A stretch of DNA of 50,405 nt from UHGV virus genome UHGV-0169486; one strand, 5' to 3'. Position 1 is the first letter of the stretch. Every line of letters starts with the position of its first letter. The notes below the pieces were generated by a model. It did no database searches and was not told the origin of the DNA. It saw only the letters and a program-made list of their open reading frames with translations. The position numbers and the translations under genes are program-made. Shown piece by piece: positions 96 through 50,405 of the stretch. The stretch comes from a virus.

Positions 96-284
96 GTGCA
101 TTGCCGGACGGGAGGTTATCAAATATCACTTATCATGCTTGCTGACAGGTTGGGAGTGAGTCGGCAAAGTGTTAAGCTAGCGATCCGATCTCTGGAACAG
201 GCCGGAGTAATAGCCATTTGCAGGAGTAAATTGCATGGACGCCAACAAGCTAACGTTTATGTCATCTTAAAAATCAAAAAATAG
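96..284 (+). CDS. small winged-helix DNA-binding protein (start uncertain, possibly truncated)
   Basis: ORF track; HTH-like segment LADRLGVSRQSVKLAIRSLEQAGVI; in-frame stop at 39-41, no in-frame ATG before GTG at 96. Confidence 0.3.
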   Translation: MHCRTGGYQISLIMLADRLGVSRQSVKLAIRSLEQAGVIAICRSKLHGRQQANVYVILKIKK

Positions 285-413
285 CCACCTGATAGCGCCT
301 CTGACGCAAGAAAGACACTGCACTCTTATAAGTGGGTTACGCGGTGGGATTTTGCGTTGTAGCGCGTTTTACGGGAAATAAATATACATTCTGTAAACAT
401 GAGGAATAACGTT

Positions 414-1532
414 ATGTCACAAAGAAAGATCAGCGATGAGGAATTAATCGCTGAACATAACAGCGGCCTGACGTATAAACAGATCGCTGAGAAGTACGGC
501 ATGGCAAAACGCAACGTCGAGCGCCTGGGCGCACGGCTGGCGAAACGCGGTTTAATATCCACGCGCCGCGCGCCGGGTTTTGGTGTCAATGGTGAATCAT
601 TGCTCGTTGATAAAGATGGCAATGTAATCATGCGCTGGATTAAAACGGCCCGTGACCGTGAGGAAATGGAAAGGCTAATGCAGGCAGCTTGTGACGCATT
701 TACGGAAGAAATGCCGCGCGAGGAAGCCGTGCCAGTGCCGGAAATTGATTTTCAGAAAAGCCTGGCCCTTTATCCGGTATTCGATCTGCATATCGGGGCG
801 CTTGCGCATAAAGCTGAATGCGGAGAAAGCTACGACACCGGGATCGCTGAACGCGTGTTAAATGACTTCTTTGACTACGCTGTAGGCGCTGCACCAACGT
901 CTGAAAAAGCTGTATTGCTTCTCGGCGGTGATGTGCTTCACACGGACGGGCTATTACCAGTGACGCCATCAAGTAATCACGTCTTAGATTGCGATTCACG
1001 CTACGCAAAACTTGTTTATGTGGCGATCCGGTCGGTCCGGCGTGCGGTGGGGAAAATGTTGTTAAACCATAAGGACGTCGAGATCCAGGTGTTATCCGGC
1101 AATCACGATCAGTCGGGGATGATTTGGCTACGTGCGGCGCTGGCGGCTTTTTACGAAGATGAACCGCGCGTAACGGTTGATGTGTCCCCTGCTATCGTCC
1201 ACCACACACAATACGGAAAAACATTCCTTGCTTACCACCACGGACACACCATCAAAAAACCAGAAACCTTACTTGCTGCCTGTGTTTCTGACTGGCGGGA
1301 GGATTTCGGTAAATCGTCGTCAGTTTACGCTCATTGCGGACACTGGCATCACCAGCGGCTGATTGAATCATCGTTAGGCGTTGTCGAGTATCACGGAACG
1401 TTAGCTGGCAAAGATGCTTACTCGACGAATGGCGGCTGGCGTTCACGGCGGCTGGCGGCGGTGATTATTTACAGCCCGGCTCATGGAGAAATTGGGCGCT
1501 TTGTTTATTACCCTGAATATTCCATTTTGTAA
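414..1532 (+). CDS. HTH domain fused to calcineurin-like metallophosphoesterase
   Basis: Motifs DLHIG, GGDVLHTDG, GNHD, HHGH, GHWHH in canonical order; N-terminal HTH LTYKQIAEKYGMAKRNVERL; ATG 414 has GAGGAA RBS (track start 399 lacks one). Confidence 0.75.
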   Translation: MSQRKISDEELIAEHNSGLTYKQIAEKYGMAKRNVERLGARLAKRGLISTRRAPGFGVNGESLLVDKDGNVIMRWIKTARDREEMERLMQAACDAFTEEMPREEAVPVPEIDFQKSLALYPVFDLHIGALAHKAECGESYDTGIAERVLNDFFDYAVGAAPTSEKAVLLLGGDVLHTDGLLPVTPSSNHVLDCDSRYAKLVYVAIRSVRRAVGKMLLNHKDVEIQVLSGNHDQSGMIWLRAALAAFYEDEPRVTVDVSPAIVHHTQYGKTFLAYHHGHTIKKPETLLAACVSDWREDFGKSSSVYAHCGHWHHQRLIESSLGVVEYHGTLAGKDAYSTNGGWRSRRLAAVIIYSPAHGEIGRFVYYPEYSIL

Positions 1533-1550
1533 ACATGAGGTAATGCCATA

Positions 1551-2972
1551 ATGATAACTGACCAAGTAAACTCATTGCGGCAGGAGCGCGAAGCGGCTGT
1601 TATAGGTGGCCTCCTGTTAGGCGGGCTTACTCCTAACGCGCAAGATGTTCTTGCTACACTCGATCCTGATGTATTCACTATTCCTCTGTACAGGCGCGCG
1701 TTCGAAATCATCAGGGCGCAAGCCAGAAACAGAAATCTTATCGACGCGTTATTGGTTGGTGATGAAATCGGTAACGAAAATTTCATACCGCTAATGCAAA
1801 CGGCGCGATCGTGTCCTTCTGCTGCCAACCTGAAAGGGTACGCGCAGCTACTACAGGAAGAACACCAGCGGCGGCAAATGCTGGAGCTAATGGAAGACGT
1901 TCGCTACAAGCTGGAAACGGGGACGCTTGAAGTTGTCAAAGAGACGATGAAAGATTTTGATTCCCGGTATTCAAAATTAAAGGTAACAAAAGATCAGATT
2001 ATCCCGGTGCTGTTGCGCGATGCTGTCCAGGAATACACGGAAGTGCTAAGTAAACGCATGGAGTGTGGCGTGAACTCTGACAACATCAAAACAGGGATTG
2101 ACCCACTCGACGAAATGTTAGGCGGCATTAACGCTACTGATCTGGTGCTTATCGCCGGACGCCCGGGGTCTGGTAAATCGGCGTTGGCGTTGGCAATTGC
2201 CCGCGCGGCGGCTGGACGCCAATACCCTGGCGGAGAAGGTCAGCGGGTCGGCGTTTTGCTGTTCACGCTTGAAATGTCGCTCGATCAGATGACTGAACGA
2301 GCTATCGCTGGCGCTGGGAATTTATCAACGGATTGCCTACGTAATCCGGTAAAACTGGATGACGAAGGATGGGCGCACGTTGCCCGGGGGATGAGCGCCC
2401 TTGCCGATCTCGATGTGTGGATTGTTGACGCATCGCAGTTAACGGTTGAGGAAATACGCGCCACCGTCGAACGGATGAAACAGGACCATCCTAATCTTGG
2501 AATGGTGATGATTGACTACATCGGGTTAATGAAACTGGCTAAGGCCGAACGTCATGATCTCGCCGTAGGGCAATTGTCGTGGTCATTGAAAATGATGGCG
2601 AAAGAGTTGCGCGTGCCAGTGGCGGCGCTGGCGCAATTATCCCGCCGCGTTGAAGAACGACCGAACAAGCGCCCGAACAATTCTGATCTGCGTGATTCCG
2701 GTAATCTTGAACAAGACGCAGACCGGATCATCATGGTCTACCGCGACGGCTACTACAACGAACAATCAGTTGCCCGCGAATACATGGAGATCATCGTTTC
2801 AAAAAACCGTTACGGGAAAACGGGGACTGTTTACCAGCGGTTTGACGATAACGGCAACATCATTCCATGCAACCAGGCTCGCGCGGCGTCCGCCTGCATC
2901 CAGTCAATGCAACAACGTCCGGCAGCAAGCCGATTCTCCACACGAAATAACCAGAATAACGCATCCTTTTAA
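1551..2972 (+). CDS. DnaB-family replicative helicase
   Basis: Walker A GRPGSGKS, DnaB-like N-terminal domain, RecA-like C-terminal domain; GAGG RBS. Confidence 0.85.
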   Translation: MITDQVNSLRQEREAAVIGGLLLGGLTPNAQDVLATLDPDVFTIPLYRRAFEIIRAQARNRNLIDALLVGDEIGNENFIPLMQTARSCPSAANLKGYAQLLQEEHQRRQMLELMEDVRYKLETGTLEVVKETMKDFDSRYSKLKVTKDQIIPVLLRDAVQEYTEVLSKRMECGVNSDNIKTGIDPLDEMLGGINATDLVLIAGRPGSGKSALALAIARAAAGRQYPGGEGQRVGVLLFTLEMSLDQMTERAIAGAGNLSTDCLRNPVKLDDEGWAHVARGMSALADLDVWIVDASQLTVEEIRATVERMKQDHPNLGMVMIDYIGLMKLAKAERHDLAVGQLSWSLKMMAKELRVPVAALAQLSRRVEERPNKRPNNSDLRDSGNLEQDADRIIMVYRDGYYNEQSVAREYMEIIVSKNRYGKTGTVYQRFDDNGNIIPCNQARAASACIQSMQQRPAASRFSTRNNQNNASF

Positions 2973-14869: not shown

Positions 14870-14923
14870 TTTCTCACCTTGTCATTTTGTGATCTGCATC
14901 ACGCAAGATCATGCCAAAATGGA

Positions 14924-14952
14924 TTGATCCATATTTTTACAATATGTATATT
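14924..14952 (+). promoter_or_regulatory. sigma70-like promoter for plus-strand gene island A
   Basis: TTGATC - 17 nt - TATATT; overlaps conserved 14-mer TTTACAATATGTAT. Confidence 0.4.
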
Positions 14953-16100: not shown

Positions 16101-16454
16101 TTAATTGATAACTTGTTCAAACGTTGCATTCAGAGTGCATACCGGGCCGTCTTTCGCCATGCTCCACTTTCGGCATACAAAAAGCCTTTTCACTCCGTCT
16201 GTAGATGGCGTCCAGTAAAACGCCTCGACCGCGCAACGTGCTCTTAAAAATGCGTCAACCTGGAGCGCCACGTTTCCGGCGTCACCGCATCCGGCGCTCG
16301 TACCTTTAAAGACCAGCGTATAGCTGTCAAGTAGTGGATTAATCCCTTTTGTCTGGCGCTGTTCATAGCCATCGCCCAGCTTGATAACGGACACGTTAGG
16401 CTCACTGTTTACGCTGTAGCTTCTCTGTGGTGTCCATCTGAACACTTCCGGCAT
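16101..16454 (-). CDS. M: minor tail protein M
   Basis: Recalled similarity to lambda M (FRW..., GDGY.QR, FEQV.N C-terminus); GGAGG RBS. Confidence 0.8.
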   Translation of the reverse strand: MPEVFRWTPQRSYSVNSEPNVSVIKLGDGYEQRQTKGINPLLDSYTLVFKGTSAGCGDAGNVALQVDAFLRARCAVEAFYWTPSTDGVKRLFVCRKWSMAKDGPVCTLNATFEQVIN

Positions 16455-16624
16455 ACCCCCTCCTGTAAGTTACATTTTGTATATATCTTTACGCACTTCT
16501 ACGCGAAAAATGAGATATTCGACACAAGAATTATAGCCAATTTACAATATGTATTCACACACGAAGCAACAAGCTGTATACAGGAAGCAAGAAGAAAAGC
16601 GGTACCAGCAAGTGAGGCCCAAAA

Positions 16625-16790: not shown

Positions 16791-17051
16791 GTGAGTTATG
16801 AAACTGGTAACTATCGAAAAAACCTGAAAGCACAAAAGAATGCACAGGAACGGGTAATCAAGAAAGGCAAGAAGTTGCTTAACGCCTTCCTGAAAAAAGA
16901 AGCCCGCCCCAAAAAATTACGTGATGGTTATGGCTTTAAATTCGATATCAATCCTGACTGGCGGCTGTTCAGTGAAGATTTGAATATTTGGTTAATTATC
17001 GATCACCTGGAATACAACTGTCATTGCGGAGTGAAAGGCGCTCATAAGTGA
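16791..17051 (+). CDS. hypothetical basic protein (island B)
   Basis: ORF track; GTG start with AGGA RBS; Lys-rich. Confidence 0.4.
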   Translation: MSYETGNYRKNLKAQKNAQERVIKKGKKLLNAFLKKEARPKKLRDGYGFKFDINPDWRLFSEDLNIWLIIDHLEYNCHCGVKGAHK

Positions 17052-20014: not shown

Positions 20015-20164
20015 GATTTAACCTCATGCAAATGTGATCTATGCATCTATTTTATACAAAATGTCTTTACTTTAACGATACCGTTTTGTATAAATGATGT
20101 AGGGAAAGATAGAAGAGATGCAGGAAGGACGGATGTCCCGGAGGAAGTGAAAGAGGATAAGGAA

Positions 20165-26543: not shown

Positions 26544-27475
26544 TCATTACCATATTTGGCGTGCGCAACCTTATAGTTTTCTTGCGCCCGATCTAATATT
26601 CGTTCGTTTAATATATTACCGTCTTCGTCAACTAATACGGTAATCGTGGTGCATTTGCAGTTAATAGAATTAGGGGATCTACTCCACCATTCTCGCTGTT
26701 CTTCTATGGTGTATGTTTTCCCGTGCCGCTGCGCGTGTGACAGCCTGGTAGTCGGTGATAATGCCGAAATGTGCATTTGCATGGTGCGGAGGTTGAATTC
26801 CTCCGTAGCCGCTTCGGCCTCATCCATACGTGCTGTGCGTAACGCTGTGCATATTTCAGTTCGGGCAATGCGTTTGCACCTGTATAGAGGTAATTGCGTT
26901 TCCTGATTCAATGTGCGCGCTATTTCCAGTGGATTTAAACCACGGGCCATACCTTCGGTTAATCGCCGGGCCATATCCTTTTTGATCTGTGCCGTTAGCC
27001 CGCGCATTTCCTCAAATACACGGGTACGGACAAGGGCAAGGCGCGTGCGGTAAGTCGTACTGGATAGCACGGCGGATACATCAGGATAAGCGCTTGAGTA
27101 CGTGACCGACTGGTTAGCGATGTTGGCGTATTCCTGGGCCGTGCCGCGCTGATAGGCCACCTTCACGTAATTCTGCCAAAACCAAAAACTTTCCGGGTCG
27201 GTTAGCTCGAATATCTCATCAATCATGTCGCTGGCGTCCTCCAGCATGTCATGCAGTTCATCCATGTAAATCTGAAAGGTATATTTCTTATTAACAGCCA
27301 GGCTATATTGTATTCTGTCAAGTATGGAGAGATATGGATCGGCTATTTTATTCAGGCAGGATTTGAAGCGCTTAATAGCCCCCGATCGTAACTTCCCTGT
27401 CATAGTCGGGTCTTCGGTGTTAGATGGCATTATCGCGGCTGGAGGTATTCGCCTGATTATTTTCTTCACCTTCAT
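26534..27475 (-). CDS. head morphogenesis protein (Mu F / SPP1 gp7-like)
   Basis: Position after portal; ARTE-containing region typical of F-like minor head proteins. Confidence 0.65.
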   Translation of the reverse strand: MKVKKIIRRIPPAAIMPSNTEDPTMTGKLRSGAIKRFKSCLNKIADPYLSILDRIQYSLAVNKKYTFQIYMDELHDMLEDASDMIDEIFELTDPESFWFWQNYVKVAYQRGTAQEYANIANQSVTYSSAYPDVSAVLSSTTYRTRLALVRTRVFEEMRGLTAQIKKDMARRLTEGMARGLNPLEIARTLNQETQLPLYRCKRIARTEICTALRTARMDEAEAATEEFNLRTMQMHISALSPTTRLSHAQRHGKTYTIEEQREWWSRSPNSINCKCTTITVLVDEDGNILNERILDRAQENYKVAHAKYGNDWE

Positions 27476-28793
27476 TGTTGTTTTCCTCGTCGTCCAGTTC
27501 TACTTCCTGCGTTGGCCCTTCATACCCGGCAGCTTCGCGAATCTCGTCACCGTCGAATACTTGTTCACCTGTGGCGAGACATGCCTGATTGATTTGCGCC
27601 ATTTTGTATGCCGCGTCGAGTAGCTCGGCTTTCGTCATGGCGTTAAGGTCGTCCCACAGTACCGACACGTCGACTGGCATACTGATAAGGCGGAGATCTG
27701 CCATCTTGCGGAATAGTTCCTCAAGCTCGCCTCCTATTTCCTCCCGGCGGGTCATACAGCGGTTATTGAAGTAGCGGAGGTCTTCGGTTGATGCACGCTC
27801 ACCCTGCTGATTCCCAACCAGGATACGCGTTGGAATGTCGATGCCAGCGGCGGCGGTTTGCAGGTTGACGTCATAGGTAGCGGACGGATCGGCTACGGCA
27901 GTGACCAGCGGGCTAACGGTAGCTCCCTGCAATGCCATCATCACATCATTGCCCTTGTTTATATCCTCTGCCGCCTCATTGAATTTTTCGCGTAGCTCTG
28001 TAACGTCGCAACCGTATGTTGCAGCCAGGGAACGGAAATCAATTTCTTTATCGAACGAGATAGCCAGTTGACGCGCGGCGTTTTTCAGGAATGACTCACC
28101 GCTACCGCCTTCCACTTTCTCCAGCGAAACGAATGCGTTATAGGGCGGCTCAAGGAAAGCGATGGCATCATCAGAATAATCACCGAAGATAAATATGCGA
28201 TCGGGATGTATCTTTCTTGCTATGGTCTTACTGTTAATGCGCTCCTTGTATTCCCACCATGTCGGCAGGCCATAGTTTTCATTATCCGGGTTTTCTTCGA
28301 AGTCCTTCGGTGTAAGAGCACCAGCCCATACAGGGGTAAATTTGGCAATGCCTACACCTTTCGTCACTGGCCGATCCCACGGCTGGTTATCCCTGACGTG
28401 AATTAACAGGCCAGCATAACGACCAATGAGGCGGCGGCGATCGCATTCAGCTATGACGCGCCAGAAACGATTATCAAATCGTTTTTTGATTTCTCTTTCC
28501 CACGGCGTTTCCTTTTCTGCTTTCTCGTCTTCCGTACCTTCGATCAGCGTTGGCCTGGTGCGCCAGCACGTAGTGATGATCTTCTCAATAGCACCGTGAG
28601 CGATACCACCGCGACGATACAGTTTGTATAAATCGTCATAGGTGATTTCTTCTTTGAATCCGTATTCACTCCACGCAGCATCACGTTTTGCATCAATACC
28701 CATTGAGAATGGGTTAGCGGCTGCATAGCGGGCAAAGGCCGCCTGGCGTTGTGACAAGGCAGCATTAACCGCCAATTCTAAATTGGATGGCAT
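27420..28793 (-). CDS. portal protein
   Basis: ORF track (27420..28814); ATG 28793 with AGGAG RBS; size and position after large terminase; acidic C-terminus. Confidence 0.65.
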   Translation of the reverse strand: MPSNLELAVNAALSQRQAAFARYAAANPFSMGIDAKRDAAWSEYGFKEEITYDDLYKLYRRGGIAHGAIEKIITTCWRTRPTLIEGTEDEKAEKETPWEREIKKRFDNRFWRVIAECDRRRLIGRYAGLLIHVRDNQPWDRPVTKGVGIAKFTPVWAGALTPKDFEENPDNENYGLPTWWEYKERINSKTIARKIHPDRIFIFGDYSDDAIAFLEPPYNAFVSLEKVEGGSGESFLKNAARQLAISFDKEIDFRSLAATYGCDVTELREKFNEAAEDINKGNDVMMALQGATVSPLVTAVADPSATYDVNLQTAAAGIDIPTRILVGNQQGERASTEDLRYFNNRCMTRREEIGGELEELFRKMADLRLISMPVDVSVLWDDLNAMTKAELLDAAYKMAQINQACLATGEQVFDGDEIREAAGYEGPTQEVELDDEENNNEGEENNQANTSSRDNAI

Positions 28794-28871
28794 AATGTTT
28801 ACTCCTGAATACATGTTTACGCGTTGCTACGCGAAAAATGGAAAAACTTATGGGGGATTGTGAGATGGTTT

Positions 28872-41543: not shown

Positions 41544-41579
41544 CTACGCATTTCAGCGATGCCGGATTTTTAAAGAGTA
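41544..41579 (-). promoter_or_regulatory. third boxA/boxB-like element (CTCTTTAAAAATCCGG plus short hairpin)
   Basis: 16-mer identical to the nutR-like boxA at 48877-48892, in sense orientation on minus strand; preceded by TTGTTC-16-TATACT promoter-like sequence. Confidence 0.4.
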
Positions 41580-41676
41580 TTTTGTTTGCTTGAAGTATAC
41601 AAAACGGATGCGCCAGAACAAGGCGAAAAGCGCCATTATGTGATGCATATCACGCTATGACGCCATTTTGTAAACT

Positions 41677-43971: not shown

Positions 43972-44069
43972 CTTGTTTTCTCCGCGCCGTAAACCTTTCG
44001 ATTTCTTCTTACAAAACGGATATGCGATCACAGCACAAAATGTATATTTATGTGATCGCGATCACCCTG

Positions 44070-47454: not shown

Positions 47455-47484
47455 AATGTCACCTTTGAAAGTTTACATTTTGTA

Positions 47485-47775
47485 TTATCTGTAGCGTACT
47501 TTATCCAGGGGTTTTTCCCCTAGACTACGCGGTTGTGTTGCGTGGTAGTAATTGCCGCTTTCGTTTTCCGCATACCATTTTGCCGCACCTTTGCGATGCT
47601 CTTTAATGCCATTCGGTTTGCATCTTTCTACGTTTGCAAAACGAATAGCTTTATCAACATTGTCAGTTTTATTGATTGCAGGTGATGATTTTCTTTCGTT
47701 TTCTCTTTTTATTCTTCTGCGTTCCCTGGCATTTATTTTGCTATCACATTTGCCATACATAATTGTTACGGTCAT
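47485..47775 (-). CDS. N-like transcription antitermination protein (arginine-rich motif)
   Basis: First gene downstream of PL-like promoter and boxA/boxB; ARM-like NARERRRIKRENERK; AAGGAG RBS. Confidence 0.55.
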   Translation of the reverse strand: MTVTIMYGKCDSKINARERRRIKRENERKSSPAINKTDNVDKAIRFANVERCKPNGIKEHRKGAAKWYAENESGNYYHATQPRSLGEKPLDKVRYR

Positions 47776-47831: not shown

Positions 47832-47869
47832 GCCGCACTTCCAGCGGCTGACCAGATTGTTAAAGAGCA
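47832..47869 (-). promoter_or_regulatory. nutL-like site (boxA TGCTCTTTAACAA plus boxB-like hairpin)
   Basis: boxA matches recalled rrn/lambda boxA consensus; hairpin GCCGC-TGGAAGT-GCGGC; between PL-like promoter and N-like gene. Confidence 0.6.
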
Positions 47870-47911: not shown

Positions 47912-47940
47912 AATATACGCCCCGTGATACACCGAGTCAA
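47912..47940 (-). promoter_or_regulatory. PL-like sigma70 promoter
   Basis: TTGACT - 17 nt - TATATT on minus strand; TATCACG operator-like half-site within spacer. Confidence 0.65.
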
Positions 47941-48029
47941 TCCATTTTGTATACTTTTTTAAATATTTTATATGTCATTGATATTTAAATAATAAAACAC
48001 GTTTTATGTTTACGTTTTGGTGTTTTCAG

Positions 48030-48058
48030 GGCAAAGAAAAGCCGCCATTCGGCGGCTA
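48030..48058 (-). terminator. rho-independent terminator downstream of repressor gene
   Basis: GCCGCC-attc-GGCGGC hairpin with T-run on minus strand. Confidence 0.55.
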
Positions 48059-48063
48059 ATTTT

Positions 48064-48675
48064 TTATGGCAGGTTTACGATCTTCGCGTCCACCACCACG
48101 CCTATGATTTTCGATTCAGGATTCATGGGGATTGGTGGATACAGCGGGTTAAGCGAACGTAAAAGCCTTTGACCTCCATCAATAATCAACTGTTTAAACG
48201 TCGGTATTTGCCCTTCCTCAAGCTGTGCTATAACCAGCTTTCCATCGATAGCTGGCGCGTGTGGGTCAACAAGTATCATCGTCCCGGCAGGGATGCTCAA
48301 CCCCTGCGGCGCGTTCATTGATTCACCTTTAGCAACCAGCCAGTAACTATCATCTGAACAAATAACGCTAGTCGTAACGTGTGGTAATGTTGATCGCCTT
48401 GTATCTTCCATATTGTTTACTGTGTCCTTCCAGTCAACAACCGGGTAACTGCCTAAATCACGCTGCGGCGCTCCCGGTAACGTGTTAGAAACAGAATCAT
48501 CAATGACCATTCCATCATGGGTAACAGTGAACTGCCGACGACCAAGTGCCCGCATAATCCGCGCAATATCTTCAAGATTTGGCTCGCGGCGACCGTTAAG
48601 CCAGTGTGACAGGCCGCCTTTAGTTATCCCCATGAGATCCGCGAGTGAATCCTGGCTCATGCCTTGCGCTCGCAT
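48064..48675 (-). CDS. CI-like repressor (HTH plus LexA/S24 peptidase domain); 5' end possibly frameshifted
   Basis: HTH SQDSLADLMGITKGGLSHWLNG; S24 region with GESM and Lys; annotated ATG lacks RBS and truncates helix 1. Confidence 0.7.
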   Translation of the reverse strand: MRAQGMSQDSLADLMGITKGGLSHWLNGRREPNLEDIARIMRALGRRQFTVTHDGMVIDDSVSNTLPGAPQRDLGSYPVVDWKDTVNNMEDTRRSTLPHVTTSVICSDDSYWLVAKGESMNAPQGLSIPAGTMILVDPHAPAIDGKLVIAQLEEGQIPTFKQLIIDGGQRLLRSLNPLYPPIPMNPESKIIGVVVDAKIVNLP

Positions 48676-48874
48676 GAGCTGCTTTGCTAAGTCATACCAT
48701 TTGTTTTCATGTCGCTACCCTATAACCTCAAAAGTTTGATACAAGTCACAAAATGTATTTTTCAAAGCCTTGATTTAAAAACTCCATTCTGTAAACTTGC
48801 AGACAAGGTAAGGCCATAGTTGCAAAGACGCAAAAAAAAAGATAACGGAATAGCACAAAAAGGCGCATACCTCA

Positions 48875-48908
48875 TGCTCTTTAAAAATCCGGTGTCGCTG
48901 CGAAGCGA
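48875..48908 (+). promoter_or_regulatory. nutR-like site (boxA TGCTCTTTAAAAA plus hairpin TCGCT-GCGA-AGCGA)
   Basis: boxA-like sequence and tetraloop hairpin in PR leader, upstream of first rightward gene. Confidence 0.5.
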
Positions 48909-50328: not shown

Positions 50329-50405
50329 CTACCAAGCTTCACAAAAACCCAAAATAACCCACTTAAACGCTCCCCTAACGCGATAAAACATATCAAGTGC
50401 TATAC

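Follow-up and report, generated by a model that had tools for sequence, protein, structure and literature searches.

The virus genome UHGV-0169486, a stretch of 50,405 nucleotides (nt) referred to here as the window, is that of a temperate coliphage of the mEpimmI group (relatives mEp021 and MagusPhagus) and carries a repeated word, CATTYTGTA. We propose, with a probability of about 0.8, that the motif containing this word is the operator of Rep, the immunity repressor of the phage and a homologue of lambda CI, and that it is not a replication or packaging signal. This reading was reached by sequence comparison and is favored because copies of the motif occupy defined positions on the promoters flanking rep and because the same core is found beside homologous repressors in unrelated phages. 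The original prediction on this DNA had taken the word, from its seemingly constant orientation, for a genome-level signal acting in replication, packaging or recombination, or for a phage-specific promoter. Coordinates of all features are collected in Table 1.

Operator-like sites on the promoters flanking rep

Rep contained Pfam HTH_3 (E=4e-12) and Peptidase_S24 (E=3e-19) domains, aligned with the lambda repressor (3bdn_A) across both domains (E=1e-19, residues 15-208) and was 94-96% identical to the 215-amino-acid (aa) proteins of relatives. No relatives were found when species-representative genomes were scanned with Rep, and only near-identical fragments came back when the 70-aa N-terminal domain was used in a word-index protein search.

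Motif copies were the only 11-mers (allowing at most one mismatch) common to both early-promoter regions flanking rep, where promoters, here and throughout, are consensus predictions. Sites A, A' and A'' are on the right-hand side of rep, and site J and a TACGCCCCGTR site on the left-hand side; relative to the predicted promoter-like sites flanking rep the operator positions are -16, -7, -43 and -41. Site A, which overlaps the rightward early promoter, is also located at -43 of a candidate maintenance promoter for rep, the -10 of which is covered by A', and this geometry matches the established arrangement of lambda OR2 and OR3 at pRM. The arms of site A, CCA and TGTAAAC, were invariant in 33 genomes, with a centre varying between TTC, TTT and TTA. 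CATTTTGTGACTTG was conserved at the equivalent of A' in the distant relative L047, and the position equivalent to J was kept at -41 or -42 both in L047 and in L050, a prophage described below. In 24 of 33 relatives, the equivalent of 47916-47926, the candidate second operator of the leftward early promoter, read TACGCCCCGTA, which is perfectly palindromic.

Of 33 aligned immunity regions, only that of the window is missing a T in ACCATTTTGTTTTCAT (48696-48712). This 1-nt deletion frameshifts rep at codon 4, so that a start is possible only at Met13 and the Lys-rich N-terminal arm is lost, and it also ruins the operator-like copy A''; it represents either a repressor-defective variant or a homopolymer sequencing error. 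Compared with nearly all relatives, the window also has an extra A at 48764, between A' and A (TTTTTCAAAGCC versus TTTTTC-AAGCC), which shifts the operator spacing by 1 base pair (bp). On the other side, the AT-rich stretch from site J to a bidirectional terminator (47952-48060, terminator at 48040-48057) was almost 100% conserved in 33 genomes and contained a 19-nt inverted repeat (47948-47966 / 47981-47999). This stretch gave no open reading frame (ORF) and no Rfam match, and could be a small-RNA or protein-binding region.

A pseudo-palindromic core that follows the repressor N-terminal domain

Alignment of all 51 copies from four genomes yielded the extended consensus K-M-CATTTTGTA-W-A-M, in which WW(T/G)(A/C)CA on the left mirrors, more weakly, TGTA(W)A on the right. 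The word consists of the 3-bp A/T centre and the stronger of the two arms of a pseudo-palindrome of 15-17 bp, approximately GTWTACA-N3-TGTAWAC, with the core TACR-N3-YGTA. The symmetric pattern TWTACANNNTGTAWA, with at most one mismatch, occurred six times against 0.66 expected, perfect matches to the 15-bp palindrome pattern were found at 383-397 and 14936-14950, and several copies were near-perfect palindromes with an intrinsic direction confined to the 3-bp centre. Because the word is half of a pseudo-palindrome, its apparent strand polarity is largely accounted for. The site has the form of an operator-type (pseudo)palindrome of about 14-18 bp, many copies having a degenerate left arm, (T/G)CCA.

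The core TACR-N3-YGTA was found in the cro/cI regions of homologous repressors in seven other contexts (phage L, Stx2 phage II, ENT1, a Vibrio phage, a Klebsiella phage and two prophage types). In the distant relatives L047-L049, whose repressor is 55% identical and has the same recognition helix (GITKGGLSHWLNGRR), gp14 is replaced by an HTH_3 Cro-like gene. ACAAAATGG is the top 9-mer of the L047 lineage (eight against 0.35 expected), with copies at positions corresponding to A' and J, and with CACAAGGCGTA covering the -10 of the N promoter. Three sites were seen in L050, an unrelated defective Citrobacter-type prophage whose repressor is 50% identical. TTCCATTTTGTA lies within the spacer of the cro promoter, its register shifted by 3 bp relative to the window. 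TCCGTTTTGTA borders the -35 of the promoter that follows the repressor terminator; like its counterpart in the window it is centred at -41, but its orientation is opposite. TACGTTATGTA covers the -10 of that same promoter. A lambdoid contig with a related helix (L053) carries TATACAGAATGTATA, TATACATATCGTATT and ATACGGTTTGTGAC between cro and cI. Phage L, in which the N-terminal domain of the c2 repressor is 54% identical, has five TACR-N3-TGTA sites, three in OR (TACGAGATGTA, CACATATTGTA and TACGAAATGTA) and two in OL (TACAAAATGTA and TACTATGTGTA). Sites with this core were likewise present in Enterobacter phage ENT1 (ATACAAGTTGTAT and TACAAAACGTA), in the Klebsiella phage and in Vibrio phage VaK (among them CCATTATGTAA), and in the three 17-bp 'putative operators' of the Stx2 phage II GenBank record (cores TACGCTCTGTA, CACAATGTGTA and TACATATTGTA). 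A negative control, with a similar C-terminal domain and an unrelated helix-turn-helix (HTH), lacked the motif and had different repeats instead. Across Escherichia, Salmonella, Citrobacter, Klebsiella, Enterobacter and Vibrio hosts, the motif follows the repressor N-terminal domain; on the simplest reading of these sequences, TACR-N3-YGTA would be the operator core of one CI subfamily and the window word its local version.

Enrichment and conservation of the word

Word counts on both strands of the window were compared with dinucleotide shuffles (n=100). CATTYTGTA matched nine times against 1.09 expected, a count reached by 0/100 shuffles, so that this exhaustive scan upholds the claim that the repetition is non-random. 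The 10-mer CCATTTTGTA, said earlier to be shared by three copies, matched four times against 0.21 expected. With one mismatch allowed there were 32 matches against 20.6, a number reached by 2/100 shuffles. Seven or eight of the nine exact copies were non-coding, lying outside ORFs of at least 60 aa, where the non-coding fraction is ~17% (P ~1e-4 to 5e-6). All seven plus-strand copies listed in the original prediction were recovered, as was its diverged, oppositely oriented copy near 48749 (48747-48755, minus strand, CATTTTGTG). Its statement that copies are always on the plus strand and always intergenic was incorrect because two had been overlooked: one on the minus strand at 20055-20063, which makes the split eight plus to one minus, and one at 27600-27608, within the portal-like gene. 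A full-text literature search for the motif returned unrelated primer sequences only, and Rfam scans of the window and the immunity region gave nothing above threshold.

The mEpimmI phages are temperate, Nus-dependent coliphages recently described as a common gut group (PMC11893012). The match to this group covers the first 6 kb and the last 9.4 kb of the window, over which it is ~88-92% identical to MagusPhagus and ~85% identical to mEp021, mEp010, mEp013, mEp044, mEp515 and mEp554; about 35 E. coli prophages match as well. Ranked against a second-order Markov expectation, CATTTTGTA was the most over-represented 9-mer in MagusPhagus (15 against 0.72) and mEp010 (10 against 0.72), and in mEp021 (11 against 0.73) it was joint second, behind an unrelated word and tied with the overlapping ACAAAATGG. 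In four genomes the exact word was 8-fold to 20-fold above expectation, with copies at homologous positions despite only ~85% DNA identity. One-mismatch copies of the window at 16543, 41598, 44010, 44034 and 14938 (minus strand) and at 20082 (plus strand) are exact at those positions in relatives, and site I, after the N-like gene, is a conserved island with variable flanks (26 unique sequences). The positions, then, are conserved in relatives as the original prediction would have it; the strand bias is not, with plus-to-minus splits of 8:1 in the window, 12:5, 9:4 and 10:2 in relatives and 4:4 in L047. These comparisons support its view of the word as phage-specific, probably functional and more than an ordinary sigma-70 consensus.

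Dispersed copies outside the immunity region

The window has ~15-17 motif sites at junctions, with about ten loci outside the immunity region, and thus departs from the confinement of operators to that region in CI/C2 systems. MCANNNTGTA occurred 28-34 times against 10-12 expected in four mEpimmI genomes, and MCATTTTGTA 7-13 times against 0.3. In the control ENT1, which has a homologous repressor and operator-like sites solely beside the repressor gene, the corresponding counts were 7 against 7.3 and 0 against 0.13. Copies in the 20-kb Citrobacter-type loci were found around the repressor only.

The extra copies are of three kinds. Some lie on promoter-like sites at tail junctions (14883-14950, 16469-16555 and 20053-20092), where pair F in MagusPhagus is a perfect inverted repeat, TACAAAATGG-N16-CCATTTTGTA. 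Others lie at junctions of the leftward early operon (44008-44046, 41660-41674 and 47472-47486) that also hold hairpins or terminators. The third kind, sites B and C, precedes the exonuclease-like and DnaB-like genes, and no accompanying promoter-like site was found at either. The conservation of copy G may reflect coding sequence only.

A promoter-like site was also observed right upstream of the third nut site, nutR2 (window 41567-41621), and carries copy H-left, so that all three nut sites would each have their own promoter-like site with a motif copy. Because this site is directly upstream, nutR2 is suggested to serve its own transcription unit and not merely read-through from the first promoter.

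Two other sequence features adjoin dispersed copies. Palindromes of the form TGTGA-N6-TCAC(G/C), which resemble CRP sites and contain GATC, adjoin operator copies at 14888-14903, 41639-41654 and 44051-44066, and the one at 41639 is the feature annotated TERM_4 in mEp021. Copies B and C (387-404 and 1523-1540) have 18 nt in common, CATTYTGTAAACATGAGG, including the Shine-Dalgarno GAGG; relatives read AAACCGGAGG at these positions.

Table 1 Features of the window discussed in the text
Feature	Position	Strand	Sequence or form	Context
rep	48064..48712	-		lambda-CI-like immunity repressor; window ORF 48064..48675, full-length start ~48712 in relatives
Site A	48781..48795	+	ACTCCATTCTGTAAA	operator-like, over spacer/-10 of rightward early promoter
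Rightward early promoter-like site	48770..48797	+	TTGATT-16-TAAACT	points toward replication genes
boxA (nutL in mEp021 naming)	48875-48887			downstream of rightward early promoter; nut site (PMC11893012)
Site A'	48745..48759	-	ATACATTTTGTGAC	over -10 TACATT of candidate rep maintenance promoter
Candidate maintenance promoter	48779..48752	-	TTTAAA-16-TACATT	weak, leftward into rep
Site A''	48696..48710	+		over rep codons 2-5; ACCATTTTGTTTTCAT in 32/33 relatives
Site J	47939..47953	+	AATCCATTTTGTATA	centred at -41 of leftward early promoter
Leftward early promoter	47912..47940	-	TTGACT-17-TATATT	lambda pL counterpart; followed by boxA, then N-like gene
Candidate second operator	47916..47926		TACGCCCCGTG	GC-centred, over -10 of leftward early promoter
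boxA (nutR1)	47857-47868		GCTCTTTAACAA	downstream of leftward early promoter (PMC11893012)
N-like gene	47485..47775	-		
Site I	47472..47486		TTTACATTTTGTATT	directly 3' of N-like gene stop codon
Tandem variant copies	44008..44046	-	ATACATTTTGTG and TCCGTTTTGTAA	intergenic gap, leftward early operon
Site H-right	41660..41674	+	GACGCCATTTTGTAA	3' of methyltransferase gene, adjoining palindrome 41639-41654
Promoter-like site at nutR2	41594..41621	-	TTGTTC-16-TATACT	15 nt upstream of boxA 41567-41579 (nutR2)
Site H-left	within 41594..41621	-	CCGTTTTGTATAC (exact CCATTTTGTATAC in relatives)	over spacer/-10 of nutR2-proximal promoter
Portal-like gene	27420..28814			
Copy G	27599..27608	+	CCATTTTGTA	inside portal-like gene; conserved in mEp021 and mEp010
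Pair F (divergent)	20053-20067; 20078-20092	-; +	plus-strand variant CGTTTTGTA	between tape-measure gene and opposite-strand gene
Promoter-like site at pair F	20066-20094	+	TTTACT-17-TATAAA	rightward
Pair E	16469-16483; 16541-16555		GTTACATTTTGTATA; TTTACAATATGTATT	between tail gene 16101..16454 and opposite-strand cluster
Promoter-like sites at pair E		+; -	TCGACA-18-TACAAT; GTGAAT-17-TATAAT	overlapping, back to back
Copy cluster	14883..14950		CATTTTGTG at 14883	another tail gene/opposite-strand cluster junction
Perfect 15-mer	14936-14950		TTTACAATATGTATA	over promoter-like TTGATC-17-TATATT
DnaB-like gene	1551..2972			rightward replication operon
Site C	1519..1533	+	ATTCCATTTTGTAAA	over exonuclease stop codon, 18 nt before DnaB-like start
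Exonuclease-like gene	~414..1532			rightward replication operon
Site B	383..397		TATACATTCTGTAAA	perfect 15-bp palindrome-pattern match, 17 nt before exonuclease gene start
Replication operon	from 49018, carrying on at window start	+		rightward

Alternative explanations and points against the operator reading

We considered whether the word could be a promoter module, with a -10 of the form TAWAMT joined to a fixed spacer, CCATTTTG, that would make every copy a host sigma-70 promoter reading in the direction of the word, including antisense or small-RNA promoters at I, J and H-right. The sequence after CATTTTG is often -10-like (TAAACT, TATACT or TATAAA), a -35 at a spacing of 16-17 bp accompanies copies A, H-left and F-right, and a plus-strand terminator lies ~100 nt downstream of J. 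However, half of the copies have no -35. B, the right-hand copy of pair E and those at 44010 and 44035 have no promoter-like site at all; C, H-right, I and J lack one whose -10 falls on the TA of the copy, and A' has TGACTT at the would-be -10. The register is not fixed, differing between A, J and A' and lying 3 bp further upstream in the cro spacer of L050. At J, in L050 and in L047 the word is upstream of the -35, in either orientation, and many copies are palindromic. TG falls at -14/-13, which is not the extended -10 position; an extended -10 was rejected as such, the TG being one base too near the hexamer. Overall, a promoter module appears unlikely, and the special phage promoter of the original prediction is not supported.

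It is rather unlikely that the site is bound by another protein, such as a host nucleoid or transcription factor, the winged-helix protein gp14 or a Cro-like factor sharing the operators. Most related contexts do encode an HTH_3 Cro-like gene beside the repressor gene, and Cro proteins normally share the operators of CI; we also take the word to resemble in part the OmpR C1 site, the Tus Ter core and a CRP half-site. However, no Cro homologue was found in the window, and the motif tracks the repressor N-terminal domain over six host genera. As a binder, gp14 was rejected: it corresponds to the N-terminal domain of an O-like replication initiator, and the motif persists in L047, L050, L053 and phage L, none of which has gp14. 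Among host factors, OmpR C1 and Tus Ter would, as we understand their sites, each need a 1-bp insertion to match the word, and the G critical for CRP is presumably missing. For IHF, Fis, LexA, DnaA, TyrR, CpxR, PhoP, GadE and sigma-32/E/S we take there to be no match, judging by inspection of their consensus sequences and not from a formal scan.

A polar genome-level signal for replication, packaging or recombination, fixed in orientation like Chi, KOPS or Ter, would fit the eight of nine exact copies on the plus strand of the window and the plus-strand location of all six copies without promoter-like sites. Yet the two-sided binomial P is only ~0.04, the bias is weaker in relatives and absent in L047, and the word presumably does not match Chi or Ter. 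Copies are concentrated in the immunity region and on promoters, and four loci hold inverted pairs. We regard such a signal as very improbable; the step from strand bias to this function in the original prediction is not supported by the orientations seen in relatives, and copies sit at defined positions on the promoters to either side of rep. An origin by chance or as a compositional artefact is hardly credible. Intergenic DNA is AT-rich and the one-mismatch excess is modest, but the exact word is strongly enriched in four genomes, its positions are conserved at ~85% identity and site I is a conserved island. Two further ideas were discarded: an RNA-level role, for which the two operons would bear complementary versions of the word, and module-junction recombination linkers, which would be too short and would leave the operator positions unexplained.

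Several points weigh against Rep operators. The left arm is often (T/G)CCA and not TACA, and the centre is nearly always TTT, making the site more asymmetric and constrained than the operators of relatives. Co-inheritance of the repressor with its neighbors could mean that the shared sequences are promoter elements of one module. Evidence that the scattering is specific to the mEpimmI lineage is thin, the control being one complete genome, ENT1, plus short loci. Given copies on their promoters, the opposite-strand clusters of the tail region would be expected to be silent in lysogens, which would be unusual if their genes serve lysogenic conversion. Finally, the operators of Rep021, the repressor of mEp021, were not mapped in the description of the group (PMC11893012).

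A predicted regulatory circuit

If the motif is the operator of Rep, a Rep dimer on site A would block the rightward promoter toward the replication genes and, at -43 of the weak leftward rep promoter, would be placed as lambda CI is at OR2. Occupation of A', over the -10 of the rep promoter, would then give negative autoregulation, and site J together with the GC-centred variant over the -10 would shut the leftward promoter of the N-like gene. A third promoter, immediately 5' of nutR2, would likewise be shut by copy H-left. The remaining copies may, with low to moderate confidence, silence secondary promoters, act as roadblocks to read-through or anchor repressor-mediated looping in the lysogen.

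The analysis supplies a proposed operator consensus for the mEpimmI repressor and predicts a lambda-like switch composed of A, A', A'', J and the -10-proximal site. It further suggests that TACR-N3-YGTA is the common operator core of a single CI subfamily extending from Vibrio to Stx phages. In the mEpimmI phages, Rep021, a CI-like repressor, confers immunity, and the gene set also includes a Q-like late regulator and the N-like antiterminator Gp17, which works on three nut sites (PMC11893012). A third repressor-controlled promoter upstream of nutR2, as predicted here, would explain the need for three such sites. The copies scattered in the replication and tail regions are unexpected for a lambda-type circuit. 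We tentatively suggest that an SOS-cleavable lambda-CI-type repressor might silence the whole prophage through ~15 dispersed operators, including promoter-less roadblock or looping sites and the third early promoter that would account for the extra nut site, as a convergent Enterobacteria counterpart of mycobacteriophage stoperators.

Genome layout

Window genes were called by a crude ORF selection and compared with the annotation of relatives. Nearly all of ~5.9-48.7 kb reads leftward, the exceptions being small opposite-strand clusters within the tail region. A MarR-like winged-helix ORF is split by the window start, 96..284 being its C-terminal part, and the right end (50329-50405) falls just past a replication gene; the window looks like a circularly permuted or cut complete genome. 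The segment 1-284/50329-50405 varies among relatives: MagusPhagus has small ORFs there, and mEp021 encodes a 495-aa zinc-ribbon protein. An ORF with a ParE-like toxin domain (Pfam PF24732, E=2e-10) lies at 16791-17051, in an opposite-strand cluster among the tail genes, and L050 also has a ParE_like ORF near its repressor. Klebsiella phage Sin4 was rejected as a relative, as it is T1-like and has the exonuclease gene alone in common with the window.

Comparison with known systems

The window most resembles the lambda CI and P22-like C2 systems with their OL and OR regions, the nearest being phage L c2 and the CI subfamily of Stx2 phage II. It shares with them a repressor with a Cro/C1-type HTH and an S24 self-cleavage domain, 15-17 bp pseudo-palindromes over back-to-back early promoters to both sides of the repressor gene, a site near -42 relative to the maintenance promoter, and N-type antitermination sites downstream. 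The core TACR-N3-YGTA is the same in the window, phage L, ENT1, VaK and Stx2 phage II. Unlike these systems, the window has about ten extra operator loci, at the replication genes, the third nut promoter, the tail junctions and after the N-like gene; it also has no Cro homologue and an almost fixed TTT centre.

In cluster A mycobacteriophages, the L5-type repressor (gp71) is monomeric and combines an HTH with a 'stoperator' domain, and the stoperator is an asymmetric 13-mer whose orientation follows transcription (PMC9283540). The window is similar in that its proposed repressor site recurs many times, both at early promoters and in short gaps between genes, with some copies lacking a promoter. 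Unlike the L5 type, its repressor is CI-like (HTH_3 plus S24), its sites are pseudo-palindromic and their orientation is not tied to transcription, B and C being co-directional with it and I, J, H-right and G opposed; in L047 the promoter-less copies are all opposed. Because neither a monomeric two-domain repressor nor a transcription-tied orientation was found, the resemblance is one of strategy and not of membership. Phage P1 offers a further comparison, in that its C1 protein is a coliphage repressor that acts on many scattered operators and promoters. P1 C1 has no relationship to CI and recognizes an asymmetric 17-mer, and P1 is a plasmid prophage without N/Q antitermination; what it has in common with the window is a coliphage repressor with scattered operators.

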